In this document: positions 3,225 through 22,623 of the stretch, in pieces | Numbering within the stretch: position 1 is the first letter of the stretch | Layout: every line of letters begins with the position of its first letter | DNA from: an uncultured Bizionia sp. | Lineage (GTDB): Bacteria > Bacteroidota > Bacteroidia > Flavobacteriales > Flavobacteriaceae | Direction: 5' to 3' | Assembly (NCBI GenBank): GCA_947496215.1 | Contig: CANMCF010000023.1 | Coordinates: 2,111 to 66,110, forward strand | Length of the DNA: 64,000 nt | The notes under the pieces: model-generated | The model's database searches: none | What the model saw: only the letters and a program-made list of their open reading frames with translations | Told to the model about the DNA's origin: nothing | Translations under genes and position numbers: made by a program

Positions 3225-4037
3225 CTAATTTCTCAAAGCTTTGTTACTAATGGATTCCTTTAGTTCCAACAACTGGCTTTCCAATTCATGAAGCCTATCA
3301 TAGACATCCACAGGTTCTGGCATTTGTTTTGAGGCAAACATCGTGACGTACCACACTTCCATGATGTCCTCGATGTCTATGGTGTAGGTTGGATAGTTAC
3401 CATCCTTGTTGTCACTCTTTAGAATTAACTTTCCTCGTTTGTCTATTCTGTTTATTACACGTTTTAGGACAATCCCATCATTCTTGCTTACAATGACGTA
3501 GACACGTCCGTCTTTTACTTCATTCAAGTCCTCTACATATTTTCCAAAAACCAAATCACCATCGAAAAAAGTACGCACCATGGAGTTACCTTGTACCTCG
3601 AAGCACCTGAAGGTCCCATTGGTAAGTTGTGGCATATGGAAAGATGGCAATGTTTCTATGTATTCCGTGTCTCCATACCCATCCAAGTATCCCGCACGAG
3701 CTTTAATTGGAACATAAACGACGTTTTCTTCGTTGTCTTGGTTGACGGCTATAACTTGAGGTACTCCAGAATATGTTTGAATTTGAGGCACTTCATCTTT
3801 TAACATTATAGTACTTCTTCCAAAAAGGTAATCCGGATTTATATCGAATTCTTCAATTATTGCAGATAGGACATCATATCCAGGTTTTGTTTTTTTTCGA
3901 GAACCATCAGATTGAGGTCTTCCATTGACTATGCTATCTATGGTAGTTCCCGTAACTCCTATGCGTTTTGAAAAAGAAAAGTTGTTTAGTTGGAAGTGAT
4001 TAATAATCGCTTTTATTTTATCATCTATGGTCTCCAT
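3225..4037 (-). CDS. HTH + peptidase S24 (LexA / phage CI-like) transcriptional repressor
   Basis: N-terminal HTH-like region (FSFSKRIGVTGTTIDSIVNG). C-terminal S24 fold signature with the GNSM serine motif (VQGNSMVRTF) and a downstream Lys (IVLKRV). Divergent from the large gene at 4387. Confidence 0.8.
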   Translation of the reverse strand: METIDDKIKAIINHFQLNNFSFSKRIGVTGTTIDSIVNGRPQSDGSRKKTKPGYDVLSAIIEEFDINPDYLFGRSTIMLKDEVPQIQTYSGVPQVIAVNQDNEENVVYVPIKARAGYLDGYGDTEYIETLPSFHMPQLTNGTFRCFEVQGNSMVRTFFDGDLVFGKYVEDLNEVKDGRVYVIVSKNDGIVLKRVINRIDKRGKLILKSDNKDGNYPTYTIDIEDIMEVWYVTMFASKQMPEPVDVYDRLHELESQLLELKESISNKALRN

Positions 4038-4066
4038 AAGCTATTTCAAATTAAATTAAACTTTTT

Positions 4067-4110
4067 ACAGAATACACTGTAAAATGTTTGTTTTTATTTG
4101 TAAAATGTTT
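4067..4110 (+). promoter_or_regulatory. Bacteroidota-type promoter (-33 TTTG at 4077-4080, -7 TATATTTG at 4101-4108) overlapped by two direct TGTAAAATGTTT boxes (4069-4080, 4089-4100)
   Basis: The sequence ctgtaaaatgtttgtttttatttgtaaaatgttttatatttgta matches the TTTG/TAnnTTTG consensus with about 20 nt spacing. The same architecture recurs at 13090-13152 and 22420-22463. Confidence 0.6.
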
Positions 4111-4386
4111 TATATTTGTACTGCAATAATGTTGCTAATATACAAAATTATCTATAAATCAAACATTTGTATAAAAACAGAGCAACAATTTCTTGATTTT
4201 ACATAAAAGACGTCTTGAAAAATCAAAACGACGGATAACTATTCAAACATTTTTTTGAATAGGGTGGAGAGTTATGCCTTTCATTATTAAGGCTTTGTAT
4301 TGAGGTTTACCTGTTGGAAAAGCGAAATGAAGACAGTTCTTGATAACAAGAACCCAATAATGATTATAAATTTTAAAACAATTAGA
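4111..4386 (+). promoter_or_regulatory. Long conserved 5' leader of large gene 1, containing a 9-bp-stem hairpin (4239-4247/4254-4262) and a 9-codon uORF MPFIIKALY (4274-4303)
   Basis: About 235 nt (from 4158) are nearly identical to 13187-13418, with roughly 14 differences by eye. The coding sequence that follows is clearly more diverged than that. Confidence 0.5.
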
Positions 4387-7300
4387 ATGAGAAAAGAGAT
4401 TAAACAAAACCTATTTAGATTCGTAACCTTACGTAATCCACAATTAATAGACAAAAAGGAAAGCCATCCGGGATTTGTGTATCATCCAGACGATAATTAT
4501 GAAAGAAGTGTTTATTCTGAGGTGCTTTCAGAGACAGATGAAGCAAGTAAAATGGCCTTGTCAAAAGCAGTGTCAGATGAATTTGTTCCTTTGAAGGGAA
4601 GAAAAGGCGTAAAAGACTATAGGCAAACCATATATGACTTTTCATTATGGTTGATGCGTAACAAAAACCATTTGTCGTACAAAAGCATAAAATCAAATGC
4701 ACAAGGAGTAGATAATTTGACGACAGAAGCACTTTTGGTTATCTGGGACAATTTGATATATCAAACGATAAACAAGAAATCCGTCTATGTGAGGGAAGCT
4801 TTGATACAAGTCTTGATAGCAGATCAATTCTTTAAGGCGTTCAAAGATTTCTCTGCTGGTTTATCTGGAGATATCTTGTTCACGGAAGATCAAGAAAAGG
4901 AGTTTGTTCGTAGAGCCAATGCGAGTGTTGTAATTTCGAAGGCATTATTGGCTGCAACGACGATAAAACCAACAACAAAGGAAAAAAGGGTAAGCATATC
5001 TAAAATCAAAGAGCTTGAAAATGCTACTGATGTTGCGTTGGCAAAAGAGCGAGTACAAAGATACCAAACCTTGGTTGAAGAGTTGAAAAGTGTCGAGACC
5101 AAGTATAAAAATGAGAATCAAGTCAAGTATGAAAAAGCTTTGACTGACTATAACCAGACGATTGAAAACCTTTTGAAAAAGGTGGAACCGGTAATTGTAG
5201 AGGAAACCAATACCAAAGGAGAGGTTTCAAAAATAGAAACATATCCAAATTTGGATTTGCCAAAATTTGTTTACAACAAGGAAGCGGCAATCAACAAGGA
5301 ATATTTGACGAACAAGATTTCCAAAGACTCATTGGCTATTTTGGAGGAACAAGGATTGGATGTCCATAAGGATTTTTCAGAAGTGTTTGATGCAGTAAAA
5401 ACAAAAGTCAAAGATGAAAATGAAATTATTCTTGGCAAGGCGCCTAAACAAATAAAAACGCTCAAAGTAGGAGGGGCAAGCGTTACCGTCAATCCGAGTT
5501 TGGAATCCGAACCATATGACTATAACATTAGTCCATTGCATTCTATAAATCCAGGAGGGTTGAGAAATATCAACATGTTGATATTCAATTACGTTCAAGA
5601 TTCTCAAATAACGGATGTATCCTATAAGATAACTTTTAACAATGGTACGGAAAAAACAAGTACGGATTTCACCATATTCAATTCAGGAACAACGCAAATT
5701 TTAAGATTGTTTCCAAACTTGATTGCTTTTCCATTTGGGACGCTGTCATACACATTAGAAGGGGAGATCACATTGGAAGATCAAACAAAGCTTAGCTTTA
5801 GTAAGCTTGTAAAAATGAAAAGCAGACACAACTTTGGAATGTTTGATTTGCAAAATGATGATTCTGGTGACAACCCTGTGGATTCTCAGGTATTTGGAGT
5901 TACCAACCTGGGAATAGCCGACTTTAGACGTGTGGAACAAGAAGTATGCTGTTATGTGCCTGGGGAAGTGTCCCATATAGAAAACATCATGGCGCGAGAA
6001 TACAAAGAACGTGCAACGAGAAGTTTGAACAGCATAGAGACCACCAGTGAAGAAACCTCGGAGCGTGAAACGGAAAAACTTACAGATACCACAACAACGG
6101 AGCGTAATGAAATGCAAAGTGAAGTATCTTCTGTAATCAATGAAGACAAATCCAAGAACTATGGGGCAAACGCAAGTGTAAGTGGCAAGTTTGGTACCAC
6201 AAGTTTCAATGCAGGAGCACATTTCGATGCATCATCATCCAGTTCCACATCAAACTCCAACAGCCAAGCACAGACGTATGCACAGGAAGTCACGGAAAGA
6301 GCCATGGAGCGTATTGTGCAAAAGGTGAGCAGCAAGCGTACATCCCGTATATTGAAGGAGTTTGAAGAAAACAACAAGCATGGTTTCGATAACACGAAGG
6401 GAGACAAACATATTACAGGAGTATATCGTTGGGTGGATAAAATCTACAAGAATAAATTGATAAACTATGGTAAACGTCTAATGTATGAATTTGCTATTCC
6501 AGAACCTGCAAGATTCTTAAAAGATGCATTGATTAAAAAAGCAGACGATGGGCAATTGGATTCAGGTATCATTTTACCGGTAGAGCCAGTAAAACCAAGT
6601 ACGATAGGGTTGAATTCAGCGACCAACATAAATGAAAGCAGCTACCAAGGATTTGCATCCAAATATGCTGCCGAAGTTAGTGCTCCAGTAGATCAATACT
6701 TGAAAATTGGTCGCGCTTTCTCCAAAGACGATCAGAGTTATGATGCCAAAGGATATGCATTTAACGACATTGATGTTCCAGAAGGATATTATGCAACGTC
6801 GGGAACAGTTAATTGGGCTGTGATCCAGAAGAACAATTCGCATAAGTTCATGTCCATTGGGTTGGGAGATTCAAGACATTCTGTAATTGGAGGATCTGGA
6901 AGTACGTCTTTTTATAATTTTTCTGACATCTATAAAAAGAATATCCCATTCTCATTCAACACTTGGTACATTCACTCAGGGCATTTCAATGTTACGATAA
7001 ACTGTACAAGAAGCAATGAAGAGTACAAGCAATGGCAAAATGAAACATATACTGCCATCATGGATGCCTACAACGATCGTTTGCGTGAGTATAACGAAGC
7101 TATGGCCGCAAACAACATTGTTCCAGACAACGATGAGAAAGTTTCTTTCAATCCGGCCTTCAATAGAAGTCTTGAGAAAAAAGAGTTGAAACGCATTGCC
7201 ATCGAGTTGTTGATAGATCAAGACAGAGTATCCAAAAACGATTATGTGGACGATTCTTTGGTCAAGGTTAAAAACGATGAAGCCTTCCATGCACATGCGG

Positions 7301-8337
7301 CTACGGTGAAGTTCTTTGAGCAAGCCTTCGATTGGGACATCATGGCTTATGTCTTATATCCGTATTTCTATGCGAAGCAATCGGATTGGAAGACATTGTT
7401 CCAAGAAACAGACGTTGCAGATCCTATTTTCCAAGCCTTTTTACAGTCGGGTATGGCAAGAACGGTTGTTCCTGTGCGTCCAGGGTTCGAAGATGCGGTA
7501 AACTGGTACATGTCCACGGGCGAAATCTGGAATGGGGAAGGATTGATCACAGATCAAGACGATGATCTTTACGTGTCCATCTCAGAAGAAATGGAAACTG
7601 TGGAAGGAGTAGTGGAAGAGACTTGGGAAACACGTTTGCCTACGAGTTTGACGGTGATACAAGCTGGGTCCATAGGTTTGAATGTGGAAGGCCTACCATG
7701 CAATGTGGATTGTGATGACTTTGCGTTGTTCGATTCTGATGGAAACCCAGTATTGGATTCAAACGGAAACCCATTGACAAACAACCCTATAGAGCAAACC
7801 GATGTTTTGATTGGAGGAGCCTCTGGGGTAGGAGGAACTGGTACAGAGGAACTTAAAATGGTCGAGTTTACCTTTGTGGACAACACGGGAAGCAATTTTG
7901 CCAATATAGGGGAGTATGATGCAGAAGGAGCCTTTCCTTTGGTTTTCAAATGCATGGATCAAAAAATAGAGATTCAAAGAGAAGCCCAATGGCATGCCTC
8001 AAACAGCGTTGGTGTAATCTATCAGAAATTGGCGGAACAAGTGTCTTTGATTTCAGGGATTCAGGCAAATCAAGTCTTTAGTAAGAAAGGAGATCCATTG
8101 GGAATTAGATTCAAGGTAGAGATAGCCAAAATTCCAACATTCACATTTGAGAAATTCGTTGAAAAAGGAGCGTTCTCCGAACCAAACCACGATTTATTGA
8201 AGCTAATCATCAATGATACTGCTGTAAAGGTGATATCTCCTACCGTGTATTTGGATAGAATCTTCGATAAAGCAAATACAGGGCTCAAGGAAGCAGAATT
8301 AAACATCAATTTACCTATCGATAGGTTTTTGGTATGA
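4387..8337 (+). CDS. Giant protein 1 of an unrecognised family (about 1316 aa). No signal peptide. Mosaic of conserved and variable modules.
   Basis: Uninterrupted ORF 4300-8337; the track start is a TTG, and ATG 4387 (MRKEIKQNLFRFVTLRNPQLI) aligns with the paralog. Paralog of 13419-17081. I recognise no known domain signature. Confidence 0.85.
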   Translation: MRKEIKQNLFRFVTLRNPQLIDKKESHPGFVYHPDDNYERSVYSEVLSETDEASKMALSKAVSDEFVPLKGRKGVKDYRQTIYDFSLWLMRNKNHLSYKSIKSNAQGVDNLTTEALLVIWDNLIYQTINKKSVYVREALIQVLIADQFFKAFKDFSAGLSGDILFTEDQEKEFVRRANASVVISKALLAATTIKPTTKEKRVSISKIKELENATDVALAKERVQRYQTLVEELKSVETKYKNENQVKYEKALTDYNQTIENLLKKVEPVIVEETNTKGEVSKIETYPNLDLPKFVYNKEAAINKEYLTNKISKDSLAILEEQGLDVHKDFSEVFDAVKTKVKDENEIILGKAPKQIKTLKVGGASVTVNPSLESEPYDYNISPLHSINPGGLRNINMLIFNYVQDSQITDVSYKITFNNGTEKTSTDFTIFNSGTTQILRLFPNLIAFPFGTLSYTLEGEITLEDQTKLSFSKLVKMKSRHNFGMFDLQNDDSGDNPVDSQVFGVTNLGIADFRRVEQEVCCYVPGEVSHIENIMAREYKERATRSLNSIETTSEETSERETEKLTDTTTTERNEMQSEVSSVINEDKSKNYGANASVSGKFGTTSFNAGAHFDASSSSSTSNSNSQAQTYAQEVTERAMERIVQKVSSKRTSRILKEFEENNKHGFDNTKGDKHITGVYRWVDKIYKNKLINYGKRLMYEFAIPEPARFLKDALIKKADDGQLDSGIILPVEPVKPSTIGLNSATNINESSYQGFASKYAAEVSAPVDQYLKIGRAFSKDDQSYDAKGYAFNDIDVPEGYYATSGTVNWAVIQKNNSHKFMSIGLGDSRHSVIGGSGSTSFYNFSDIYKKNIPFSFNTWYIHSGHFNVTINCTRSNEEYKQWQNETYTAIMDAYNDRLREYNEAMAANNIVPDNDEKVSFNPAFNRSLEKKELKRIAIELLIDQDRVSKNDYVDDSLVKVKNDEAFHAHAATVKFFEQAFDWDIMAYVLYPYFYAKQSDWKTLFQETDVADPIFQAFLQSGMARTVVPVRPGFEDAVNWYMSTGEIWNGEGLITDQDDDLYVSISEEMETVEGVVEETWETRLPTSLTVIQAGSIGLNVEGLPCNVDCDDFALFDSDGNPVLDSNGNPLTNNPIEQTDVLIGGASGVGGTGTEELKMVEFTFVDNTGSNFANIGEYDAEGAFPLVFKCMDQKIEIQREAQWHASNSVGVIYQKLAEQVSLISGIQANQVFSKKGDPLGIRFKVEIAKIPTFTFEKFVEKGAFSEPNHDLLKLIINDTAVKVISPTVYLDRIFDKANTGLKEAELNINLPIDRFLV

Positions 8338-8681
8338 GTCAAGTAAAATTGGAAATGATATGGCAACACGAGAAAGTGTTGCCATACATTCTCAATGATC
8401 TAAAAAAGCAAGTAGAGACCATCACAACAGTACATGGTATTGTGTTGTATGGTAGTCGTGCAAAAACGAACATTGAGAATTGGGACACTTTAAAAGGCAA
8501 GGATTGGGATGTTGTGGTGGTAACAGATTTTCCAATAGTCAATACTCAAATATGGACTCAGGATGAAAACTACCATATAGACTTGAGGGTCATTGATAAA
8601 AAAAGAGCGGATGAAATACTGGGGTTTTTGAAACAGACCATAGAATTATATCCTGTGAATCAATTGAAACAGCCTTTTTAA
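8334..8681 (+). CDS. Small Pol-beta-superfamily (minimal) nucleotidyltransferase-like protein
   Basis: VLYGSRAKTN...KDWDVVVVTD fits the G-S...DxD minimal NTase pattern. Its start overlaps the giant gene stop (ATGA), which suggests translational coupling. Confidence 0.45.
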   Translation: MSQVKLEMIWQHEKVLPYILNDLKKQVETITTVHGIVLYGSRAKTNIENWDTLKGKDWDVVVVTDFPIVNTQIWTQDENYHIDLRVIDKKRADEILGFLKQTIELYPVNQLKQPF

Positions 8682-8718: not shown

Positions 8719-11088
8719 ATGAACAATACAATATACAATGAAACGATTAGAGATATGACACATGTGAGCAAGTTGGCGTCTCAAAAGTTTTATAATAGGA
8801 CGGCTCCGGAAATCTCACAAATCTACTTCCCACAATCTGACCAAAAAAAAATCAAGAACATCGTGGTTGAAACAGATGTGGATACAAGTGGCAAGCTGTT
8901 GGAATATGTGACGAAACGGGTGTATTTCTATGACAAGAACAACAACAACAAGCTGGATGATGATGAACAGTTGGCCTACAATGCTTACATATACACGTCA
9001 ACAGATGCCATAAAGTTGAAAGAGACATATGAAGTGGCCGAAGCAGGGGAAGACGATGTCTTGATTTTTGTAGAAGACAACCAAGGAGACGTAAGTTCCC
9101 AGTTTTGTAGAGCTAGAGTTGGAAAAAATGTTTTGAGCAATTTAAAGAATGCAGGCCATTTATACAACAACAGGAAACTTTTGGCAAGAATAAACGAACA
9201 TGCCCCTATCGATGAAGCCGTTTTAAATGAATTGTTGAAAAAGGGAAAGATAGAGAATACCACGTTGAAGGTGTTGGAATTCTTGTTTGCAGTTCCGGAT
9301 TATCTAGGCCCTTTCAGTCCAAATACTTTTGTAATGAAAGGCTTGGGAACTATATGTGAGGAGATTGCAAAGTTTATAAACAAGGCAAAAGTAGACGATT
9401 ACAGGTGGAACCCCCAAGCTAAAAAACGCAATGAGGATGGGACAGAAGATGAAACACATGAGTTTGCTCCTTTCCTGTTTCCCTTTGTGACAGAAGCATT
9501 GGATAGCATTGATGATTCCAAGGTAAATGGATATATGCAAAAATCCATTGCAGAATTGAAAAGTTTATACGCTTCTCAAGATCAAGCCATTCAAAATTAC
9601 GTTAAGAATGTGGATGTCGGCCGCTTGGGCAATGTGCCAATTTATTTTCCCTATGGAGGTTACGTGAACGTGGAAGTGGATTTGGTTCCGGATTCCATAG
9701 AACTGTTTTTGTTTAACAAGTACTTGCAAGTGAAAAAAGTGATAGATGCGGTATTCGAGAAATTGGAAGGGTTTGATTTCACGGACCTCATCAAAAAAGG
9801 GATTACCACGGCCAATGCATTCCTATGTGGTGTTTGGAATGGTTTGGTAGATGCCATTTCCGGTATTTTCGTGCTTTTGGAAATGGTGTTCAAAGCCGCC
9901 GCTGCAATGAATGATTTCAGGCAAAACTTCAGTACGGAATTTCCAATATTGTTGGAGTATATCGATAACTTTACGGAAGCATTGAGCAGTATAGATTTCA
10001 AAGAGCTCTATACACATCTAAAAACAAAGTTGTCAGATGCATCCATAGGAAGCATATCTTTGGAAACGATTGCTTATTTTAGTGGAGCGTTCATTGGGTT
10101 TGTAATAAGTTTGGTTATTGAAATAGTCGTAGGGATTCTATTTACAGGTGGTACGTTGAGTGTGGCAGCTGTAATAGAAAAGCTAGCGGCCATATTTTCA
10201 GGATTGCTCAGAGCAGGAGCCAAGGTTTTGAAAAAGACTTTTGATTTTTCAAAAAAATTGGTGGTCAACACCTTCAAGGGGTTCAAAAAGTTGTTGCAAG
10301 GAATGATAACTCTTTTGCGTAAGGGAACAGCTGGTTTCAAAGTAATGATAGATGACATATTCAAGGCATTCGGAATTTATGCCAAGGAAGCATTGAGTAA
10401 TGCAAATTCAGGATTGATACCGTTGTTGACAAAAGCAGAATTAAACCTCTACAAGAATTTGGCAAAAGCTTTTTTCAAGCCATTCAAAAAGTTGCTTTTA
10501 AGATATGCGGATAATGCAAGGGTGTTAAGGAGGTGGAGAAAGTTGAACCCTATGGATAGTCTATTAAAAGTTGATATAGACGAACTTTTAAGACTTAGGT
10601 CTTTAAATAAAAGAGGTTACAACAAAAATACTGCAACTATGAAAGCTCAAGTAGAGGTAAATGGAGAAGTTCTTGAGTTGGAATATAAAGCTTTGGCTGG
10701 TAATAAGACTAGTGGAGAAGGATTGCTTGGTAATGTGAATAAAGACTATATAGCTAAGCAATTAGGTATTAGTATAGAAGATTTAATGAAACATTTTGAT
10801 GATATTGCTGATGATGATTTGATAAGAAGGTTTCATGATAGTGAGCATAAGATCTTTAGTGCTTTCGATGATGATGTGTTGAAGCTTCAAACCCGTTATG
10901 GTAAAGAAAGTGTAAATGTTAAGAGTGTAAACTTTAAAACACTTTACGAACCATGTATATCTTGTAAACGTCAAATGATCATTCGTCAAGAAATGCACGA
11001 ATTTTCACTTAAAGTTCAGGCAATATTAATAAAAGGTAAGAATTACGCAAAAAATAATTCAGACTTACAAAGTTTAATGTTAAAATAA
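8719..11088 (+). CDS. Membrane-module protein with polymorphic C-terminal toxin domain (deaminase-like)
   Basis: Central hydrophobic helices (GVWNGLVDAISGIFVLLEMVFKAAAA; IAYFSGAFIGFVISLVIEIVVGILFTGG) are shared with 17278-19125. The C-terminus has FHDSEHKIF followed about 35 aa later by LYEPCISCKRQM, resembling the deaminase HxE...PCxxC layout. An immunity gene starts 6 nt downstream. Confidence 0.6.
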   Translation: MNNTIYNETIRDMTHVSKLASQKFYNRTAPEISQIYFPQSDQKKIKNIVVETDVDTSGKLLEYVTKRVYFYDKNNNNKLDDDEQLAYNAYIYTSTDAIKLKETYEVAEAGEDDVLIFVEDNQGDVSSQFCRARVGKNVLSNLKNAGHLYNNRKLLARINEHAPIDEAVLNELLKKGKIENTTLKVLEFLFAVPDYLGPFSPNTFVMKGLGTICEEIAKFINKAKVDDYRWNPQAKKRNEDGTEDETHEFAPFLFPFVTEALDSIDDSKVNGYMQKSIAELKSLYASQDQAIQNYVKNVDVGRLGNVPIYFPYGGYVNVEVDLVPDSIELFLFNKYLQVKKVIDAVFEKLEGFDFTDLIKKGITTANAFLCGVWNGLVDAISGIFVLLEMVFKAAAAMNDFRQNFSTEFPILLEYIDNFTEALSSIDFKELYTHLKTKLSDASIGSISLETIAYFSGAFIGFVISLVIEIVVGILFTGGTLSVAAVIEKLAAIFSGLLRAGAKVLKKTFDFSKKLVVNTFKGFKKLLQGMITLLRKGTAGFKVMIDDIFKAFGIYAKEALSNANSGLIPLLTKAELNLYKNLAKAFFKPFKKLLLRYADNARVLRRWRKLNPMDSLLKVDIDELLRLRSLNKRGYNKNTATMKAQVEVNGEVLELEYKALAGNKTSGEGLLGNVNKDYIAKQLGISIEDLMKHFDDIADDDLIRRFHDSEHKIFSAFDDDVLKLQTRYGKESVNVKSVNFKTLYEPCISCKRQMIIRQEMHEFSLKVQAILIKGKNYAKNNSDLQSLMLK

Positions 11089-11094
11089 TAAAAA

Positions 11095-11574
11095 ATGGAA
11101 ATACAATTTTTACAAAAATTAAAACAGAATCCTAAGATTGGTGTAAGAGAAATAAAAGGAGTTTTGGAATCAGAGATCTTTGAGGTAGAGAATAAACTTA
11201 ATATTAGTTTTCCAAAATCGTATAAAGAGTTTTTATTTTTAGCAGGAGAGTCTTGTGGAGCATTACAAATATTGGATACTACAGATTTGAAAACTATTTC
11301 TTCAGATTGGCATAAAGAAATACAAAAAGAAGAATTAGAATCTACAAGGACTGAATTTGATGGACCTTTTTGGTTGTTTGCTGAAAGCAATGGATGTGAG
11401 GTTTTTCATTTCTTTTATTTGGAAGATGGTATTGATGATCCAGTGGTATTTTCTGTAGACTATGATATATATGATGATAATAAACGTATAATTAAGACCA
11501 GTGATAAAAAATTCAGCGTATTTATTGAAAATAAGATAAAATCGGCTATAAGAATAGATAAACAAGGATATTAA
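11095..11574 (+). CDS. SMI1/KNR4 (SUKH-1) family immunity protein
   Basis: N-terminal pattern ESEIFEVENKLNISFPKSYKEFLFLAGESCG is typical of SMI1_KNR4. It lies immediately after the toxin gene. Confidence 0.8.
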   Translation: MEIQFLQKLKQNPKIGVREIKGVLESEIFEVENKLNISFPKSYKEFLFLAGESCGALQILDTTDLKTISSDWHKEIQKEELESTRTEFDGPFWLFAESNGCEVFHFFYLEDGIDDPVVFSVDYDIYDDNKRIIKTSDKKFSVFIENKIKSAIRIDKQGY

Positions 11575-11627
11575 TTAGTAAAGTATTCAAAACAAAAAGC
11601 CGAACTCTAGCCAGGTTTAAGAATAAA

Positions 11628-11876
11628 ATGATTATGAAAAAAACATTTATTTGTACTGGATATATTGAAACGAGTTTGGATAGTATCATCTCAATTTTAA
11701 AAACTTTTTTAGATGCATCCAATATTACAGATAGATATGCTGTAGATATAGAAAGAGAAGTTAAATATAGAGATGAAAAAATAGACATTTACTCATACAA
11801 GTACTCAGAAAAAGGGAGTTTATTTCAAGTAGAACTCAACGGAACGAAGAAGCTCAAAGCTTTATTGATACAATAA
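11628..11876 (+). CDS. Small hypothetical protein, possibly the 5' part of a frameshifted gene extending to 11986
   Basis: 82-aa ORF. A different frame stays open from about 11770 to 11986 and reads protein-like (EEAQSFIDTITEKLREDSIVHQFEWNEVDENEDQVGEEFEIRFPED) but has no start codon. Confidence 0.35.
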   Translation: MIMKKTFICTGYIETSLDSIISILKTFLDASNITDRYAVDIEREVKYRDEKIDIYSYKYSEKGSLFQVELNGTKKLKALLIQ

Positions 11877-12038
11877 CTGAAAAATTAAGAGAGGATTCAA
11901 TAGTTCATCAATTCGAATGGAATGAGGTTGATGAAAATGAGGATCAAGTAGGAGAAGAGTTTGAAATTCGATTTCCAGAAGATTAATTTCCAGGTTATTA
12001 AGTAATAGTTATGCTTTGCTAATAAAACATAAAGCCTA

Positions 12039-12075
12039 AAAAAGCTCTTACATCTTATAGTAAGAGCTTTTTTAA
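12039..12075 (+). terminator. Rho-independent terminator
   Basis: aaaaagctcttac / 8-nt loop / gtaagagcttttttt: a GC-containing 11-13 bp stem followed by a T-run. Confidence 0.65.
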
Positions 12076-12098
12076 ATATTTTGTAGACTTTTAAAAAG

Positions 12099-12404
12099 AT
12101 GACCTTAACAGAAGAAAAAGCAATACAATTAGGAAAGAAGATAATGTCTGACATTAATTTCGATTATGATAAAGAGGCGGAAATAACAGCTAAGTTTGTT
12201 GAAGAAAGTGATGAAGCTTTAGTTATTCCAAATAAATCTTGGTTGGTTAGTTTTCCATATGGATATGAGGATTTTGGAAGATATGTTAGAGGACATTTAA
12301 TAATTTTGGATGAAAATATGATTGGTGTAGATGTTTCAATAAGAAATGGTAGTATTAAATTGGAATATAATTCAGGTGAAGACAGGTATTATGTTAAAGA
12401 GTAA
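12099..12404 (+). CDS. Small hypothetical protein (candidate orphan immunity protein)
   Basis: 101-aa acidic ORF located between the two SUKH genes. No recognisable motif. Confidence 0.45.
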   Translation: MTLTEEKAIQLGKKIMSDINFDYDKEAEITAKFVEESDEALVIPNKSWLVSFPYGYEDFGRYVRGHLIILDENMIGVDVSIRNGSIKLEYNSGEDRYYVKE

Positions 12405-12493
12405 TTGTAATGTCAATTTATTTTTTCAGAGATAAAATCATATAGAATCTGTAATATGGTTAAGCGTTATCGTATGATGACTTGTTGGATACA

Positions 12494-12976
12494 ATGAATA
12501 TAGAATATTTAAATAGTTTAAAAGAAAACTCAGAAATTGGAAATAGAAAAATTAAAGGAGTTTCCGAATCAGAGATAACAAGTGTAGAACAAAAACTAAA
12601 TATTGCTTTCCCAAAATCATATAGGGAGTTTTTGTTTTTGGCTGGGGAATCTTGTGGGGCTTTGCCTTTATTGGAATCTGCAGATTTAAAGACATTGTCA
12701 TCAGATTTTTACAAGGAGGTTTTGGAAGAAGACATGAAAGACACCAACACTGTTATAGAGCGACCATTTTGGGTTTTTGCAGACAGTATTGGGGACCAAG
12801 GATTTTGGTTTTTCTATCTTGATGAAGAATCAGAAGATCCGCAAACCTATTATTATGCATATAAAGAAACTGAGCCTTATGAAGCGGTCATTGGTTCTCA
12901 TGAATTGATCTTTAGTGAGTTTATTGATGGAAGAATAGACTTTGGTAATCAAATAGAAAAAGAAGGTATTTGGTAA
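12494..12976 (+). CDS. SMI1/KNR4 (SUKH-1) family immunity protein, paralog of 11095-11574
   Basis: ESEITSVEQKLNIAFPKSYREFLFLAGESCGALPLL aligns with the first SUKH protein. The track start at 12482 is a TTG; ATG 12494 is more likely. Confidence 0.8.
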   Translation: MNIEYLNSLKENSEIGNRKIKGVSESEITSVEQKLNIAFPKSYREFLFLAGESCGALPLLESADLKTLSSDFYKEVLEEDMKDTNTVIERPFWVFADSIGDQGFWFFYLDEESEDPQTYYYAYKETEPYEAVIGSHELIFSEFIDGRIDFGNQIEKEGIW

Positions 12977-13000: not shown

Positions 13001-13040
13001 AAAAAAAGCCGAACTCTAATCTGAGTTCGGCTTTTTTATT
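13001..13040 (+). terminator. Rho-independent terminator closing locus 1
   Basis: Stem gccgaactc (13008-13016) pairs with gagttcggc (13023-13031). An A-run precedes it and a T-run follows. Confidence 0.75.
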
Positions 13041-13089: not shown

Positions 13090-13152
13090 AAACATTTTAC
13101 AAAACAAATAGTGTTGTAGTTGCTTTTGTTTGTAAAATGTTGTATATTTGTA
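13090..13152 (+). promoter_or_regulatory. Second copy of the promoter/operator. The upstream TGTAAAATGTT box is inverted here (13091-13101). A direct box at 13131-13142 abuts the -7 element TATATTTG at 13143-13150.
   Basis: aaacattttacaaaacaaa ... tttgtttgtaaaatgttgtatatttgta forms a 17-18 nt inverted repeat around an approximately 19-nt spacer. Confidence 0.55.
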
Positions 13153-13418
13153 ATGTAATAAGGCTGCTAATGTGCTGAAAAACTATAAATCAAACATTTG
13201 TATAAAAACAAAGCAGCAATTTCTTGATTTTACATAAAAGACGTCTTGAAAAATCAAAAACGACGGATAACTATTCAAACATTTTTTTGAATAGGGTGAA
13301 GAGTTATGCCTTTTATTATTAAGGCTTTGTATTAAGTTAAACCTGTTGGAAAAGCGAAACGATGACAGTTCTTAAAGACAAGAACCTAATAATAATTATA
13401 AATTTTAAAACAATTAGA
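13153..13418 (+). promoter_or_regulatory. Second copy of the conserved 5' leader, including the same hairpin and the uORF MPFIIKALY (13306-13335)
   Basis: Near-identity to 4111-4386. Within the uORF the only differences are ttc to ttt (synonymous) and tga to taa (stop to stop). Confidence 0.5.
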
Positions 13419-16400
13419 ATGAGCAAAGAGATTAAACAAAACCTATTTAGGTTTGTAACCCTACGTAATCCACAATTAATAGAAGACAAAAAAGAACATC
13501 CAGGTTTTGTATATCATCCAAGTGAAGATTATGACGGGAGTGCATACAGAACCATGCTTACAGAAACAGATGTTGCAAGTAAAAAAGCATTGTCTAAAGT
13601 CGTTTCGGATGAATTCACCCCTTTAAAAGGTCGTAAAGGTGTAAAGGACTATTCACAAGCAATGTATGACTTTTCGTTGTGGTTGATGCGCAATAAGAAC
13701 CATTTGTCTTATCAAAGCATAAAATCCAATGCAGAAGGAGTTGGCAATTTGACAACAGAGGCACTTTTGGTTGTTTGGGACAATTTAATATATCAAACAA
13801 TAAACAAAGAATCCGTTTATGCGCGAGAAGCTTTGATACAAGTTTTAATTGCAAATCAATTTTTAAAGGCATTTAAAGGTCTTTCAATAGGAATGGAAGA
13901 ATTTACAGATGACACTGAAAAGGAGTTTGTGCGAAGAGCAAATGCAAGCGTTGTAATTTCGAAATCCTTATTTGTTGAGAATGGAGAGAAAAGTCAATCT
14001 AAAAAAAGATTGACAGAATCTCAAGAAAAAGCAATGCTTAAAGTGATTGAAACAGAAGAAGCCAAGGAGAATTTGGCAGCTTATAAAAAATTGAATGCTG
14101 AGCTTAAAGGAATAGAGATAGGTTACAACAAGGAATCTCAAAGATCATACGATAATACTTTAAAAACGCACAAAGCATCTATAGCTAAAATATTGGCGTC
14201 AACAGAACCTGTAGTAGTTAGTGAGACAGACCCAAGAACAGGAGTTGTTAAAAAAGTTAAAACATATCCAAACTTGGAACTGCCATCGTTTAACTTTGAA
14301 AACACAAAAGCAATAGATTCCAAATACTTGAAAGAGCGATTGTCTCCAGAATCTATGCAGGTTTTCGATGCAGTAGAGTTAGGGGTTTACGATGATTTTT
14401 CTGAAGTGAACAACGCTATTAATAATCAAATTCAGCTTGTAAATCAAACGATTCTAAATAACGATTCTTCAACATCAGGAACGGTATTGGTTGGGGGAAC
14501 CACAACTACCGTAAGTGAAAACATGGCAACTTTAGACCCTTATTGCTTTTTTGTTTCTAGGTTGAGTTCAATAGGAAACCCCGGATTGACCATGTTTTTA
14601 GGAACTGGGTACTTGGGAGCTTTAGCATCGAATGCGTCTTACACTTTGGAAAACTTGGATTCTAACATAAAGTATGAAGGAACAGTAATACAAACAAATT
14701 CTAGTTTCAACAATACAAGTACGCGTTTGTTTTTTCCAATAGCTCATCCTATAGACAATAATGGGAGTTATCGTTTTTCGGGAAAATTCACATTGGATAA
14801 TGGCGTGACATTAAGTTTCGATGTTACAAACGACGTATCTAAACGAGGTGTGAGATTTAATGGTTGTTGTGATGCCGTAAAAGGAGATGATACTACAGAT
14901 CCAGCAGGAGGAGAGGTTAAGCCACAAGTGTTTGGAGTCACCAATTTAGGTATTGCGGATTTCAGACGTGTAGAACAAGAGGTGTGCTGCTATGTGCCTG
15001 GAGAAGTGTCACACATAGAAAATATCATGGCACGTGAATACAAAGAACGTGCAACAAGAAGTTTGAACAGTGTAGAAACTACCAGTGAGGAAACGACAGA
15101 ACATGAAACAGAAAACTTAACAGATACAACTACAACCGAGCGCAATGAAATGCAGAGTGAAGTTGCTTCCGTTATTAATGAGGATAAATCTCAAAACTAT
15201 GGAGCAAATGCAAGTGTGAGCTATAGTCCTACAAAAGCATTGTCCATAAATGCAGGAGGTTATGCGGATTTTTCATCATCAAGCTCTACGTCAAACTCCA
15301 ATAGTCAAGCTCAAACCTATGCACAAGAAGTGACTGAGAGAGCAATGGAGCGTATTGTTCAAAAAGTAAGCAATAAACGTACTTCTCGTATTTTAAGAGA
15401 GTTCGAAGAGAATAACAAGCATGGTTTTGACAATACCAAAGGCGATAAGCATATTACAGGTGTGTACCGTTGGGTTGATAAGATTTACAAGAATAAATTA
15501 ATCAATTATGGTAAGCGTTTAATGTATGAATTTGCGATACCGGAACCAGCTAAATTTTTTAAGGAGGCATTATGGAAAAAGTTCAAAAACGATGAATTGG
15601 GGGCTGAGGTTGTATTGCCTATAAAACCAGCTCATCCAAGAGACATTGGTGTGACTTCTCCAACGAGTATTATAGAGTCGACTTACCAATTAAAGGCGGC
15701 TGAATACAATGCAGAGGTTATTGCAGCTCCAGAAAAATACGATTATGTCGGTACGTCGTTTACTAAATCGCAACAAGGTGGAGACGGCGGAGATAACACC
15801 AATAAATCTGCCAAAGATGTCATTAAAATCCCAAAAGGATATAAAAGCATTGCAGCAAAAACAACAGGAAGACAAAAAAATGGTGCAGTTTTAATTTCTG
15901 TTGCCGGTGAAGACTTTCCTGTTAATAGTTCGTACTATTCTACAATAACTCCTCATTTGGACGAATTACCTGTTTCTGTTTCTTTTGAATGGAACTGGGT
16001 GACGAATGTAAATATAGATGTAAAGTGTGAGAGAACGGATGGAGCCTACAAACAATGGCAAAATGAGACGTTCAATGCTATCATGGAAGCTTATAATGAC
16101 CGTTTGCGAGAGTATAACGAATCGATTATTGCAAATGAGATCAACCAGAATGCCAGTGGTGAAAAATTAAAATTCAATCCATTGTTCAATAGAAGTATAG
16201 AAAAGAAAGAGTTAAAACGTATTGCGATTGAATTGATCATTGATCAAGACAGGATTTCCAAAAACAATTATAATGCAATCAATGATGCTACAGGTTTGTC
16301 AAAAGTGATGAAAACACAAGGTTTGCAAGATCATGCAGCTACCGTTAAATTCTTTGAGCAAGCATTCGATTGGGATATCATGTCATACATCTTTTATCCA

Positions 16401-17081
16401 TATTTTTATGCTAATGAAGAGAATTGGAAAGACTTGTTTCAGTCTCAAGATGCAGCAGATCCGTTATTTCAAGGTTTCTTGCAATCCGGTATGGCTAGAA
16501 CAATTGTTCCTGTTCGCCCAGGGTTTGAAGACGCAATGAACTGGTATATGTCTACTGGAGAAATCTGGAATGGTCAAGGATTGATCACGGATCAAGATGA
16601 TGACCTTTATGTGTCCATTGCAGAAGAAATGCAAACCGTGGAAGGAGAAGTGGAAGATACGTGGGAAACACGTTTGCCAACCAATTTAACTGTAATACAA
16701 GCAGGTTCAATAGGTTTAAATGTGGAAGGGTTGCCATGTAACATTGATTGCGACGATTTTGCGTTGTTTGATTCTGATGGCAAGCCAATTTTGGATGACA
16801 ATGGAAAGCAGGTGACTGAAAACCCGATAGAGCAAACCAATACAATGGTTGGGGGCGAGCTTGATCCAACCGAGTTGGAAAAGGTACAAAGCCGCTTGAT
16901 CGAAAATGTAGACATAGACAATGGTTACCTTAAACTGACCACAGAAGGAAGCAACAGGCAGACAGTTGCACAAATTTCCGTGGAAGCAATCAAACGAGCC
17001 ATAGATGAGTCGGTAGCTACTACGACGACCAGAACGTCTACCCTTGAAAAAGGCTCTGAAACAACTACGGCTTCAAGATAA
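13419..17081 (+). CDS. Giant protein 2 of the same unrecognised family (about 1220 aa)
   Basis: Uninterrupted ORF 13362-17081. ATG 13419 (MSKEIKQNLFRFVTLRNPQLI) aligns with protein 1. The N-terminal, core and C-proximal modules are shared, while two internal regions and the tail differ. Confidence 0.85.
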   Translation: MSKEIKQNLFRFVTLRNPQLIEDKKEHPGFVYHPSEDYDGSAYRTMLTETDVASKKALSKVVSDEFTPLKGRKGVKDYSQAMYDFSLWLMRNKNHLSYQSIKSNAEGVGNLTTEALLVVWDNLIYQTINKESVYAREALIQVLIANQFLKAFKGLSIGMEEFTDDTEKEFVRRANASVVISKSLFVENGEKSQSKKRLTESQEKAMLKVIETEEAKENLAAYKKLNAELKGIEIGYNKESQRSYDNTLKTHKASIAKILASTEPVVVSETDPRTGVVKKVKTYPNLELPSFNFENTKAIDSKYLKERLSPESMQVFDAVELGVYDDFSEVNNAINNQIQLVNQTILNNDSSTSGTVLVGGTTTTVSENMATLDPYCFFVSRLSSIGNPGLTMFLGTGYLGALASNASYTLENLDSNIKYEGTVIQTNSSFNNTSTRLFFPIAHPIDNNGSYRFSGKFTLDNGVTLSFDVTNDVSKRGVRFNGCCDAVKGDDTTDPAGGEVKPQVFGVTNLGIADFRRVEQEVCCYVPGEVSHIENIMAREYKERATRSLNSVETTSEETTEHETENLTDTTTTERNEMQSEVASVINEDKSQNYGANASVSYSPTKALSINAGGYADFSSSSSTSNSNSQAQTYAQEVTERAMERIVQKVSNKRTSRILREFEENNKHGFDNTKGDKHITGVYRWVDKIYKNKLINYGKRLMYEFAIPEPAKFFKEALWKKFKNDELGAEVVLPIKPAHPRDIGVTSPTSIIESTYQLKAAEYNAEVIAAPEKYDYVGTSFTKSQQGGDGGDNTNKSAKDVIKIPKGYKSIAAKTTGRQKNGAVLISVAGEDFPVNSSYYSTITPHLDELPVSVSFEWNWVTNVNIDVKCERTDGAYKQWQNETFNAIMEAYNDRLREYNESIIANEINQNASGEKLKFNPLFNRSIEKKELKRIAIELIIDQDRISKNNYNAINDATGLSKVMKTQGLQDHAATVKFFEQAFDWDIMSYIFYPYFYANEENWKDLFQSQDAADPLFQGFLQSGMARTIVPVRPGFEDAMNWYMSTGEIWNGQGLITDQDDDLYVSIAEEMQTVEGEVEDTWETRLPTNLTVIQAGSIGLNVEGLPCNIDCDDFALFDSDGKPILDDNGKQVTENPIEQTNTMVGGELDPTELEKVQSRLIENVDIDNGYLKLTTEGSNRQTVAQISVEAIKRAIDESVATTTTRTSTLEKGSETTTASR

Positions 17082-17277: not shown

Positions 17278-19125
17278 ATGAGTAATATAAATGAGAACAA
17301 TCCATTGGAGGGAATCGATTTCCCGGATGGTGTTTCAAATGCCTCTAACCTCTTTGCTGCAAATGCACCGATTTCGAATTCCATATTTCAAACTTGTACT
17401 ACAGATAATTTTTTGAATTACTTCTTTCAAGGAGCAGAGCGTAAGGATGTCGTGGAAAAAATGGGAGCTTTTGGAGGCAAGATAGTAGAAGAAACTTATG
17501 TTGGAGGAGGAATCGAAAAAGTATATAGGACAAACCGATATGTCAAAAAAGATGGAATTAGGCAAGAAGCGGGAACAGTGGTTTTGATTATTGGTACAGA
17601 TGGAGCAGAAATACTGAAGACCCATAATGGCTTGGTGCCAAAAAAAGGGGAACAAATTATCCTTCTGGAAAAAAATGACAATGATTTCTCTGGAGCCATA
17701 ATGCGTTTTAAACAGGATACAAGTATAAACATCAACAAATCCGCAGTTTCATTGACCAGTTTCATCAATAAACGCTATGAGATCACATTGGATCAATTTA
17801 AAGACATTGTCAATAGGGTAGACAACACCTCTGCTCTGGAAAGTTTGGTGATCTCGATACTTGACAATACCAAAACAGTTAGAACCGTGGCAACGGTAGG
17901 TTTGGCATTGGCAGGTAAAATGATAGACTCAGCCATAAAGGGGTTTGATGAATTTGTGGATGGTTCGCTAAAGATCGATCCTAGTTTTTGGAACCCGGAC
18001 CATAAGGATTTCAAACAGAAGGTAAATGTAACATCAGAACAAATAAAGGAGTTAACAGCCTCTTTGGATGTTATTGGTGGAAAAGTGGATGGATTGAGTT
18101 TTAAAAGCGTGGTTGCTGCCGGAGGAGCTGCATCTGTGGCAGCAGGACCGTTTGCACTTGCATTTCTGGCTCCCGGAGCAGTGGCATACAAATTATATTC
18201 CGAAGAAATAGAATTGGTGTTCGATAAGATGAAGGCTCAAATAAAAAGCGCCCTAAAGACTCTTAAGGAATTTTTGAACAATACGTTGGAAAGCCTGATA
18301 AAAGGCATAAATACGACAATAAATGTCGTATTGGCTTTTATTTCCGGAGTTTGGTCAGGTTTGGTGGACTTTGTTGCAGACATCATAAGGCTCTTCCTGT
18401 TCTTGGTGAAATTGGCTGTGGCCGGTGCAGGAAAAGTAAATGAGGTGATTGGTGTTAAAGAAGGGGATTCCAAAGCATTTGTAAAGAACTTTGGGTTGTA
18501 CTATAACCTCATCTTGGAAAACATAGATAATACGTTGCAAGGTTTGGGAGCAGTAAACTGGTTGGAATTCTTCAAGGAATCCTTTTTAAAGTTCGAACTG
18601 TTGAAAATACGTATCCTAGCCAAGATCTTCGATAAGGCCGGGAAGACTCTGGACGGATTGAATTATGCTGAGTGGGCCTATTACATAGCCTATGCCATAC
18701 TATTGATTGCAGATATCATATTGTCCTTCTTCTTTCCTGGTCTGTTGGCAACCAAAATAGCCAAATTAGGCAAGGCAGGAAAGGTGTTGGCGAAAATCAT
18801 TGTAGCTGTGCAGGATGCTATGGCACTTGTATTTAAAATAGGGTTTAAGACAGTTGCCTTTGGTGTGAAAAGCATTATAGGTGTTTGGTCCAGCATTGTA
18901 GGTATTTTAAGAAAGGGAACTAAAAAACTCTTGGAGTTTTTGGATGTAGTGTTCGCTAATCTGGCAAAGGTGTTCGATGAGGTTATTACTGGGGTGTCTA
19001 AAGCGGCAGAAAAGGCTTACAAGTCTTTGTTTAATGTAACTGAACGAAGTTTGATAGATAAGTTGGGCTTAAAGGTAAGTAAATACGAGGATGACATATT
19101 AACACTTTGTCCGATAGGCAAATAA
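17278..19125 (+). CDS. Membrane-module protein, paralog of the central part of 8719-11088
   Basis: LAFISGVWSGLVDFVADIIRLFLFLVKLAVAGAG and GILRKGTKKLLEFLDVVF align with GVWNGLVDAISGIFVLLEMVF and LLRKGTAGFKVMIDDIF of the 789-aa protein. The N- and C-termini are unrelated. Confidence 0.7.
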   Translation: MSNINENNPLEGIDFPDGVSNASNLFAANAPISNSIFQTCTTDNFLNYFFQGAERKDVVEKMGAFGGKIVEETYVGGGIEKVYRTNRYVKKDGIRQEAGTVVLIIGTDGAEILKTHNGLVPKKGEQIILLEKNDNDFSGAIMRFKQDTSININKSAVSLTSFINKRYEITLDQFKDIVNRVDNTSALESLVISILDNTKTVRTVATVGLALAGKMIDSAIKGFDEFVDGSLKIDPSFWNPDHKDFKQKVNVTSEQIKELTASLDVIGGKVDGLSFKSVVAAGGAASVAAGPFALAFLAPGAVAYKLYSEEIELVFDKMKAQIKSALKTLKEFLNNTLESLIKGINTTINVVLAFISGVWSGLVDFVADIIRLFLFLVKLAVAGAGKVNEVIGVKEGDSKAFVKNFGLYYNLILENIDNTLQGLGAVNWLEFFKESFLKFELLKIRILAKIFDKAGKTLDGLNYAEWAYYIAYAILLIADIILSFFFPGLLATKIAKLGKAGKVLAKIIVAVQDAMALVFKIGFKTVAFGVKSIIGVWSSIVGILRKGTKKLLEFLDVVFANLAKVFDEVITGVSKAAEKAYKSLFNVTERSLIDKLGLKVSKYEDDILTLCPIGK

Positions 19126-19960: not shown

Positions 19961-19970
19961 AAAAACAAAA

Positions 19971-22463: not shown

Positions 22464-22623
22464 TTCGCTTTTCTAACAACGGTTTACCGAAGTTAAAATT
22501 AATTCGTGTTAAGTAGAAACCCAAAAACCTAGGCTTAATCTATATCTGATTAAGAAAAAACAAGCAATGGAAGTCTTTGGTCAGTGGTTTGGTCTACTTG
22601 AAGTTAAAAAATCAAACATATGT

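Follow-up and report, generated by a model that had tools for sequence, protein, structure and literature searches.

What does a very large protein that matches no known family do at the head of a bacterial operon? The question is raised by the gene at positions 4387 to 8337 of a 64,000-nucleotide stretch of DNA from an uncultured Bizionia sp. (contig CANMCF010000023.1), referred to here as the window. We call its product giant 1; a paralog, giant 2, is encoded further downstream. Our analysis suggests that the giant is the conserved, non-toxic binding and translocation component of a two-protein polymorphic-toxin module, bacteriocin-like and released by lysis, a reading to which we assign a probability of about 0.5. 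Genetically, the giant is tied to a module of polymorphic toxin and immunity genes, and in Bacteroidota the giants are obligatory companions of a polymorphic toxin family. The giant family itself is unannotated and distributed across prokaryotes.

The giant is coupled to polymorphic toxins and immunity genes

Open reading frames (ORFs) were called and clustered in 80 related loci and in the window (81 loci). A partner gene (cluster c2 or c8) lies no more than three ORFs downstream in 65 of the 79 Bacteroidota giants with readable downstream DNA. The window holds two modules in tandem, each with its own putative promoter/operator and leader, a giant, a hydrophobic carrier, a fused or separate toxin, and immunity genes (Table 1). 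Module 1 is a tight operon in which giant 1 comes first, followed by a 115-residue ORF, partner 1, the SUKH genes and a terminator.

The partners carry 2-5 hydrophobic segments, and the giant none. Those of partner 1 lie at residues 369-397, 457-475 and 479-497. Its match to a toxin deaminase (3.7e-4) falls below the Pfam cutoff, and its match to a PHROG tape-measure family is weak (6.5e-6). Partner 2 is related to partner 1 (23 % identity over 561 residues, E 6e-13) and is followed by its toxin as a separate gene; this split layout of carrier and toxin recurs in at least nine other loci.

Toxin domains were scored in the C-terminal 330 residues of the partners or in the next ORF. We found Tox-MPTase4 (8), WHH (8), EndoU (6), colicin DNase (5), YwqJ deaminase (4) and BURPS668_1122-type deaminase (2) domains, as well as CdiA tRNase and glutamine deamidase domains, and database relatives that share the partner N-terminal region carry ADP-ribosyltransferase or C39 domains. 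At least ten toxin domain families are thus borne by homologous carriers, which is the layout of polymorphic toxins and is found in the partner, not in the giant. In the N-terminal carrier region, database protein P0288 shares 94 % identity with partner 1, but it carries a metallopeptidase-toxin domain (PF15640) that partner 1 does not have; because the carrier region is shared and the toxin domain differs, domain swapping happens in the partner and not in the giant. Immunity genes lie directly downstream and are often arrayed, as is typical of polymorphic toxins, with SUKH-1, -3, -5 and -6 clusters downstream of the partners in many loci, sometimes in arrays of 4-8.

Searches of Pfam and NCBIfam with the giant and both partners recovered no recognised trafficking domain, whether of the type V, VI or VII secretion systems (T5SS, T6SS, T7SS), the Photorhabdus virulence cassette (PVC), TcdB/TcaC, PrsW, MuF or TANFOR. 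Judged by its domain content, the partner is a bona fide polymorphic toxin without a catalogued trafficking module.

Two layouts of the partner can be told apart. The carrier is either fused to the toxin (about 750-900 residues) or shorter (about 600-700 residues) and followed by a separate toxin of 200-340 residues with its own N-terminal region (window 17278-19960; loci L011, L031-L033, L036, L051, L079 and L080). The pair is reminiscent of specialised versus cargo effectors.

Table 1. Coordinates of the features described in the window, in order of position
Feature	Position	Strand	Description
Candidate repressor	3225..4037	-	XRE-type helix-turn-helix (HTH) and S24 self-cleaving peptidase, lambda CI/PrtR architecture; Pfam Peptidase_S24 5e-10, HTH_19 6e-4
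Putative promoter/operator region	4044..4120	+	Inverted repeat 4044-4070/4077-4103; direct repeats TGTAAAATGTTT, twice
Predicted Bacteroidetes-type promoter	4097-4119	+	TTTGTAAAATGTTTTATATTTGT, flanked by inverted and direct repeats
Structured 5' leader	4125..4386	+	Predicted hairpins 4239-4262, 4276-4293 (then U-tract), 4311-4336, 4337-4354
Giant 1, N-terminal helical domain	4387..4941	+	Residues 1-185; near-invariant N-terminal strand NLFRFVTLRNPQ; predicted helical, AlphaFold2 pLDDT 70-91
Giant 1, fast-evolving module 1	4942..5886	+	Residues 186-500; predicted 62-residue helix (204-265), then beta-sandwich (about 357-485), AlphaFold2
Giant 1, conserved core	5887..6513	+	Residues 501-709; 90 % identical to paralog, family mean 65 %
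Giant 1, fast-evolving module 2	6514..7020	+	Residues 710-878; predicted beta-sandwich/jelly-roll (771-875), AlphaFold2 pLDDT 70-90
Giant 1, C-proximal alpha/beta module	7021..7800	+	Residues 879-1138; ends in LPCxxC motif; aromatic residues invariant across phyla
Giant 1, tail domain	7801..8337	+	About 165 residues, ends LPIDRFLV; no Pfam match
115-residue ORF	8334..8681	+	Overlaps giant 1 stop codon (ATGA); Pfam Polbeta 5e-3, below threshold
Partner 1	8719..11088	+	789-residue carrier, central hydrophobic segments, C-terminal deaminase-type toxin domain
Immunity-gene array	11095..12976	+	SUKH/SMI1 at 11095-11574 and 12482-12976 (Pfam SMI1_KNR4 9e-9, 3e-10)
Small ORFs within immunity array	11628-11876, 12099-12404	+	
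Intrinsic terminator closing module 1	13002..13037	+	15-base-pair perfect stem, then T-tract
Second putative promoter/operator and leader copy	13091..13418	+	Before giant 2
Giant 2 (paralog)	13419..17081	+	1,220 residues; different, shorter tail; tail homologs in P0012, P0004 and others
Partner 2	17278..19125	+	615-residue hydrophobic carrier without fused toxin
EndoU-type RNase toxin	19139..19960	+	Separate gene; N-terminal adaptor region of about 140 residues; Pfam EndoU_bacteria 6e-11
Candidate EndoU immunity protein	19932..20327	+	Assigned by position only; no Pfam match; cluster c37 recurs downstream of partners elsewhere
Lysis cassette	22567..24228	+	CHAP peptidase 22567-23061 (Pfam CHAP 4e-8); holin 23069-23503 (Phage_holin_4_1 3e-11)
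Terminator-like hairpin	23537-23561		Between holin and 207-residue ORF
207-residue protein	23605-24228	+	In lysis cassette; N-terminal membrane segment

Architecture and evolution of the giant

The ORF of giant 1 (4300..8337, forward strand) is intact, and family alignments together with database protein P0001, which has the same length, place the start at the ATG at 4387, giving 1,316 residues. Giants 1 and 2 share 58 % identity over 1,170 residues (BLASTP). A sequence-only reading of this DNA had described giant 1 as a mosaic of six conserved and variable modules, and that description held with its borders. Identity to the paralog is 0.78 over 4387-4943, 0.32 over 4944-5886, 0.90 over 5887-6515, 0.28 over 6516-7020, 0.77 over 7021-7800 and 0.10 in the tail (7801-8337). 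The same profile is seen in 76 family members, with mean pairwise identities of 0.41/0.23/0.65/0.24/0.52 in modules 1-5. The motifs quoted at the time are all present in giant 1, and the protein has, as stated then, no hydrophobic segment that could serve as a signal peptide or transmembrane helix (maximum 19-residue Kyte-Doolittle mean 1.0).

The same reading had taken the variable modules for swapped inserts, an interpretation that our data contradict. These modules can be aligned and have equal length family-wide, with gaps of only about 3 % among the 76 members. Four-fold synonymous identity between the two giants is 0.37-0.47 in each of the five aligned modules, and 0.25 in the tail, where it comes from 8 sites only. 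Synonymous saturation extends to the conserved modules, so the duplication is old. With four-fold sites about equally diverged in all five aligned modules, the near-identity of the blocks is due to selection at the protein level. The variable modules are homologous, fast-evolving domains and not swapped ones, because they are alignable and of equal length across the family and synonymous saturation is equal throughout. On these alignments we read the mosaic as a product of unequal purifying selection rather than of swapped inserts. Gene conversion or recent recombination between the paralogs was considered as well and rejected, given the saturation of synonymous sites in the conserved modules.

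We modeled residues 1-1150 with AlphaFold2 using the family alignment (predicted local distance difference test, pLDDT, 68), and modeled the C-proximal domain alone (pLDDT 64). The predicted order is a helical N-terminal domain, the 62-residue helix, a beta-sandwich, two long strands around the core, a second beta-sandwich and an alpha/beta domain. The LFRFVxLR motif of the N-terminus is conserved in relatives from Bacillus, Sinorhizobium and Tsukamurella, and in the relative P0255 fibronectin type III (FN3) domains are inserted in the first fast-evolving module.

In the core, beta-strands 505-525 and 683-705, of 21-23 residues each, flank the GEVSHIENIM motif. An amphipathic hairpin (593-614) with a Ser-rich flank and a stretch rich in Thr and Glu also belong to the core. 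Residues G526, E527, I531, N533, E538, E551, H665, N669, G678, D684 and R697 are invariant across phyla, and residues 528-680 are modeled with pLDDT below 50. The Ser-rich run, which had been regarded as low-complexity sequence, proves to be a conserved flank of the amphipathic beta-hairpin; the pattern is kept even in an archaeal relative, with insertions and deletions in the turn. The beta-moment of the hairpin lies at the 98th percentile.

The tail, by contrast with its earlier description as protein-specific, has homologs of about 165 residues in other giants (P0002, P0003, P0027, L064, L072 and L080) and recurs in Pontimicrobium, Flavobacterium, Dokdonia and Chryseobacterium. Most family members end 28-40 residues past the LPCxxC motif, without a tail domain. 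The C-terminal tail, and only the tail, is thus an optional add-on that recurs in other genera. A 115-123-residue ORF (cluster c41, with a weak minimal-nucleotidyltransferase signature) is found only after tailed giants, namely in the window, L001, L064 and L072. The idea that tail and ORF form a HEPN/MNT pair was dropped, as the RxxxxH motif of the tail is not conserved in homologous tails.

The giant belongs to a large family spread across prokaryotes

In Pfam, NCBIfam, PADLOC and PHROGs no match of giant 1 rose above noise, and searches of the PDB with the single sequence and with three profiles returned no match. Foldseek comparison of the 1,150-residue model with the PDB produced only weak, generic beta-sandwich matches to domains of about 110-150 residues, and the C-proximal domain modeled alone had no PDB fold match. 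Structure prediction, Foldseek and profile searches, including an hhalign comparison with TcA, matched no well-characterised family, in agreement with the sequence-only reading. By sequence and predicted fold, the family is not assignable to any known family or fold.

The family is nonetheless large. Searched with a profile, 1.84 billion cluster representatives yielded 4,180 clusters (50 % identity level), of which 2,580 fall below 1e-30, and the species-representative genome set contains at least 550 loci. These span Flavobacteriaceae, Weeksellaceae, Crocinitomicaceae, Chitinophagaceae, Saprospiraceae and one metagenome-assembled genome (MAG) of Planctomycetota; one locus, L001 (Bizionia sp. 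MAG-66), is 99 % identical. A second search for homologous proteins with the family alignment yielded no further distant members.

Searches of plasmids with tblastn extended the family beyond Bacteroidota. Relatives with 25-32 % identity over about 560 residues of the core and C-proximal modules are found in Bacillus thuringiensis, Sinorhizobium/Ensifer, Cupriavidus, Tsukamurella and Streptomyces. The haloarchaeon Natronorubrum also matches, and the match in Aulosira is weaker and shorter. Relatives are accordingly known from Firmicutes, Actinobacteria, Proteobacteria, cyanobacteria and one haloarchaeon. The LFRFVxLR and GE(V/I)xHIEN motifs, the amphipathic hairpin and the FFEQAF(D/E)W...YPYF(Y/W) block are common across these phyla.

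Seven loci on plasmids (L081-L087) carry relatives with 25-37 % identity in the core and C-proximal modules, in B. thuringiensis, Natronorubrum, Sinorhizobium, Streptomyces, Tsukamurella, Cupriavidus and Chryseobacterium. Every annotated locus among them has a co-directional downstream partner gene, which encodes a patatin-like phospholipase in Natronorubrum and a 383-residue protein with a hydrophobic C-terminus in B. thuringiensis. The genes upstream of non-Flavobacteriales loci are heterogeneous and uninformative, save one NusG-like gene.

One family member, P0030 (1,161 residues, 50 % identical), is a complete transcript in a marine eukaryote transcriptome (MMETSP). Its source is presumably an associated bacterium, and the transcript provides indirect evidence that the family is expressed.

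A candidate repressor, promoter and leader precede the giants

Orthologs of the S24/HTH repressor candidate occur in 49 of the 81 loci, almost always upstream of the giant, adjacent to it and divergent from it. A 23-nucleotide motif, TTTGTAAAATGTTnTATATTTGT, is present only twice in the window (4097 and 13129), in both cases before a giant, with 0 occurrences expected by chance, and it is invariant or nearly so across genera. Taken with the repeats around it, the motif has the features of a promoter with an operator, a role that we infer from the DNA sequence.

The non-coding DNA upstream of the two giants (4038-4386 and 13070-13418) is about 91 % identical despite the synonymous saturation of the coding DNA, and a leader of about 260 nucleotides is conserved across 6 genera. 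RNAalifold predicted four hairpins in this leader, with compensatory changes in 7 of 23 pairs, and the hairpin at 4276-4293 is terminator-like and resembles an attenuator. Comparison of the leader with Rfam gave chance-level matches only. Together these features make the leader a candidate new cis-regulatory RNA combined with an operator. In the Bacteroidia MAG locus L068, a NusG-family gene (8786-9307) lies directly upstream of the giant; this gene hints at processive antitermination, which would fit the long leader of Flavobacteriaceae.

Lysis genes often accompany the giant in Flavobacteriales

CHAP genes were found in 29 and holin genes in 28 of the 81 loci. Loci of Flavobacterium and Chryseobacterium have an M15 peptidase together with a patatin-like phospholipase instead of CHAP and holin, and a mobilizable Chryseobacterium plasmid carries M15, patatin, giant and partner together. 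A rearrangement in Kordia parts the giant from the repressor, which remains beside the lysis genes. Tenacibaculum maritimum and T. halocynthiae have repressor, giant, CHAP and holin, with no ORF called between giant and CHAP. In T. maritimum, a fish pathogen, the giant is retained without an intact toxin partner. No partner ORF was called in its locus L097, where the gap is about 1 kb, nor in L044.

Further genes are found around the lysis cassette. In the window, module 2 is separated from it by a reverse-strand ORF of 412 residues (20417-21655), which has a signal-like segment at its N-terminus and matches nothing in Pfam. In 13 loci a short endonuclease V-like gene (166 residues; window 21872-22372) lies between the immunity genes and CHAP/holin. 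Deaminated DNA is the substrate of endonuclease V, a point of note beside deaminase toxins. Tail-collar genes (cluster c6, about 220-340 residues, with a weak, sub-threshold Gp10_C match) stand beside CHAP/holin in 18 loci, often in several copies, including L006, L007, L016, L021, L036, L042, L044 and L056, and none is present in the window. Their products may be accessory binding proteins.

A proposed two-protein module for toxin delivery

These observations can be assembled into a working model. The CI/PrtR-like S24 repressor would silence both modules until stress. The giant and toxin products, which have no signal peptides, would then leave the producer through the phage-type lysin/holin cassette, in the manner of pyocins, colicins and Tc toxins. 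That the lysin is needed is suggested by its non-orthologous replacement (CHAP/holin versus M15). Outside the cell, the giant would act as the binding and translocation ("B") part. Its fast-evolving beta-sandwich modules would recognise the target surface, a role with which the beta-sandwich predictions and the FN3 inserts in one relative are compatible. The conserved core, probably oligomeric, would carry out the membrane or translocation step; it is the most conserved part, does not fold as an AlphaFold2 monomer and holds an amphipathic hairpin with Ser/Thr flanks, features that would suit an oligomeric and possibly membrane-active device. The hydrophobic carrier would finally pass the inner membrane and take its toxin (a nuclease, deaminase or peptidase) with it. 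Stress induction, release by lysis, and oligomerisation, receptor binding and membrane insertion by the giant are deduced steps of this model.

Several observations weigh against it. The promoter/operator motif is not found upstream of the CHAP and holin genes in the window, and a reverse-strand gene lies between module 2 and the lysis genes, whose co-regulation with the modules is a supposition. The non-Flavobacteriales loci showed neither lysis genes nor the repressor. The occurrence of the family in monoderm bacteria and in an archaeon fits poorly with a step at a diderm envelope and leaves room for an intracellular role. Foldseek revealed no similarity of the giant to any pore-former or translocase in the PDB. 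The core hairpin is of ordinary hydrophobicity (mean hydropathy about -0.2) and is outscored by other strands. Covariation between the giant modules and the partner N-terminus is weak (rho 0.07-0.18, partial at most 0.29, in variable module 2). Finally, the literature searched contains no prior description of, or experimental data on, any member of the giant family.

A broader proposal, which we put forward tentatively and consider possible rather than probable, is that the giant is an undescribed delivery machine found across prokaryotes, a self-assembling B component released by lysis that would attach to target cells by its hypervariable beta-sandwich domains and, with its invariant core, bring the product of the next gene into them. 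On this proposal the cargo can be a polymorphic toxin, a phospholipase or another product.

Polymorphic toxins are classed by their trafficking. A large set of them is found here without a known trafficking domain and with a genetic dependence on the giant, an unannotated protein of about 1,150 residues. If the broader proposal is true, polymorphic toxins would have a trafficking mode not described before, in use in Bacteroidota, Firmicutes, Actinobacteria, Proteobacteria and even haloarchaea. Learning what the giant does could also uncover a new route for proteins into cells, with modular recognition domains and exchangeable cargo. The hosts of these toxins include Flavobacteriia of marine and fresh waters, fish pathogens (Tenacibaculum maritimum, for example), Chryseobacterium, Chitinophagaceae and Saprospiraceae, and knowledge of the giant's function would help explain competition between strains of bloom-associated and fish-pathogenic Bacteroidota. 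With more than 4,000 clusters (50 % identity) and no Pfam model, solved structure or fold match, assigning a function to the family would annotate a very large block of proteins.

Alternative explanations

An unlikely alternative is that the giant acts inside the producer, either as a chaperone or storage scaffold for the hydrophobic carrier or as an abortive-infection or defence sensor with a downstream effector. Such a role would suit a family found in diderm, monoderm and archaeal hosts, each with a co-directional downstream partner. Nucleases, deaminases, phospholipases and transmembrane proteins are also typical defence effectors, and partners that have transmembrane-like segments and no signal peptide need shielding in the cytoplasm. 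However, classical polymorphic-toxin domains with SUKH poly-immunity arrays mark interbacterial conflict (Zhang et al. 2012, PMC3482391), the giant matches no PADLOC model and has no NTPase or sensor-type domain, and its fast-evolving beta-sandwich/FN3 modules resemble extracellular recognition domains.

A domesticated prophage or the remnant of a tailocin, with the giant as a fused tail tip or fibre and the partner as a toxin-bearing tape measure, is an improbable explanation of the locus. The CI-like repressor, CHAP endolysin and phage holin do have a phage character, as do the weak PHROG tape-measure matches of the partners (1e-5 to 1e-6) and the tail-collar genes by the lysis genes. In BFVD, the best Foldseek matches of the giant, all weak, are mostly to tail proteins (E 1.7e-5 to 1e-3), but those of chain length have TM-scores below 0.2 and a root-mean-square deviation above 35 Å. 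Three diverse family members had no homolog in 50,697 phage genomes (tblastn), PHROGs gave nothing significant for the giant, and only 5 of 2.9 million viral contigs (IMG/VR) match, 4 of the 5 close to a contig end. Capsid, portal, terminase, tube, sheath and baseplate genes are absent from every locus, a giant placed before a "tape measure" reverses the tail order of siphophages, and the chromosomal position is conserved across genera. Of the two resemblances that the sequence-only reading had proposed for the giant, the one to bacteriocins gains from the polymorphic toxins, immunity genes and lysis genes nearby, and the one to tail fibres has no homology behind it, given the phage-genome search and the weakness of the structural matches.

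Equally improbable is the view that giant and partner serve a secretion apparatus with genes at another site (T6SS-iii, type IX secretion (T9SS), or an unknown one) as its substrates or adaptors, the lysis genes being merely syntenic. T6SS effectors of the prePAAR/Eag type have no signal peptide, carry N-terminal transmembrane segments and need carriers, and they provide a precedent for the partners. The invariant LFRFVxLR strand could be a recognition signal, and no operator in common with the lysis genes was found. Against this view, no T6SS domain, T9SS C-terminal domain (T9SS-CTD), PAAR, VgrG or other trafficking domain was detected in giant or partners, and the 80 neighbourhoods contain no secretion-system genes. 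The family also occurs in Gram-positives and an archaeon, which lack T6SS and T9SS, and the replacement of one lysin by another argues that a lysin is required.

Comparison with known systems

The two-protein toxin module shares elements with several known systems. Like the polymorphic toxins of Zhang et al. 2012 (PMC3482391), the partner has a conserved N-terminus, a swappable C-terminal toxin and SUKH arrays. It differs from the catalogued toxins in having none of the listed modules (type II secretion system (T2SS) signal, T5SS, T6SS, T7SS, PVC, TcdB/TcaC, PrsW, MuF) and in its obligatory upstream giant gene, which those catalogues do not describe. Bacteroidetes also have the TANFOR toxins (PMC7073777), which are linked to T9SS and form a separate family; no TANFOR domain is present here.

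Binary AB toxins and beta-barrel pore formers (anthrax protective antigen, PA; iota Ib; aerolysin) likewise combine a separate binding/translocation protein with enzymatic cargo. Their amphipathic beta-hairpin with Ser/Thr-rich flanks may have a parallel in the giant between very long beta-strands, an analogy of sequence pattern alone. In contrast to theirs, the hairpin of the giant is short and moderately hydrophobic, and there is no fold or sequence match; for Ib, the only match is to a beta-sandwich (E 0.063 over 113 columns).

The SOS-inducible colicins and the S-type and R/F pyocins have a logic of regulation and release that the module would share: an S24 self-cleaving repressor (PrtR) beside the killing genes, cytoplasmic toxins such as nucleases and tRNases, an immunity gene directly downstream, and lysis genes. 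Here, however, binding/translocation and killing are split over two proteins, and SOS control is putative. Neither the giant nor the toxin polypeptides match colicin/pyocin receptor-binding or translocation (R/T) domains in Pfam, and the locus has no tail genes; the likeness in domains is confined to the cytotoxic Colicin-DNase of some partners.

By analogy, the Tc toxins appear to be the closest functional counterpart of the giant system. Each has a very large protein that lacks a signal peptide. In TcA a conserved translocation part goes together with receptor-binding domains of beta-sheet type, variable and poorly conserved, that are inserted in a helical scaffold (PMC6795518), and the giant would follow the same design. 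Both have a separate component with an exchangeable toxin, and phage-type lysis genes in the locus. Release of Tc toxins is lytic and uses a type 10 secretion system (PMC10847048); in the sep locus of pADAP a holin-holin-lysozyme set lies directly before sepA, with sepB and sepC after it.

Actual homology to TcA, with the giant as a very distant relative and miniaturised pentameric injector that docks cargo at its C-terminal domain, is nevertheless highly improbable, and we rejected membership in that family and retained the likeness as analogy only: the UniRef name of one member from Chryseobacterium, "TcA C-terminal TcB-binding domain-containing protein", could not be reproduced, since Pfam TcA_TcB_BD is absent at E <= 10 from the window protein, its paralog and five Chryseobacterium-type members; PDB sequence and profile searches and Foldseek with the full and C-proximal models, whose pLDDT of 68 and 64 limits their power, did not recover TcA; and hhalign of the family profile against SepA gave a probability of 0.1 %. 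The giant has half the size of TcA (about 2,500 residues), no long channel helices (longest predicted helix 62 residues) and no detectable sequence, profile or fold homology to Tc proteins, and neither the window nor the 80 related loci encode TcB/TcC (SpvB/RHS) proteins or an RHS cocoon. Its cargo differs as well, being a hydrophobic carrier with antibacterial toxins and immunity genes. Because these are antibacterial polymorphic toxins accompanied by immunity genes, the two-protein module presumably targets other bacteria rather than animal cells.

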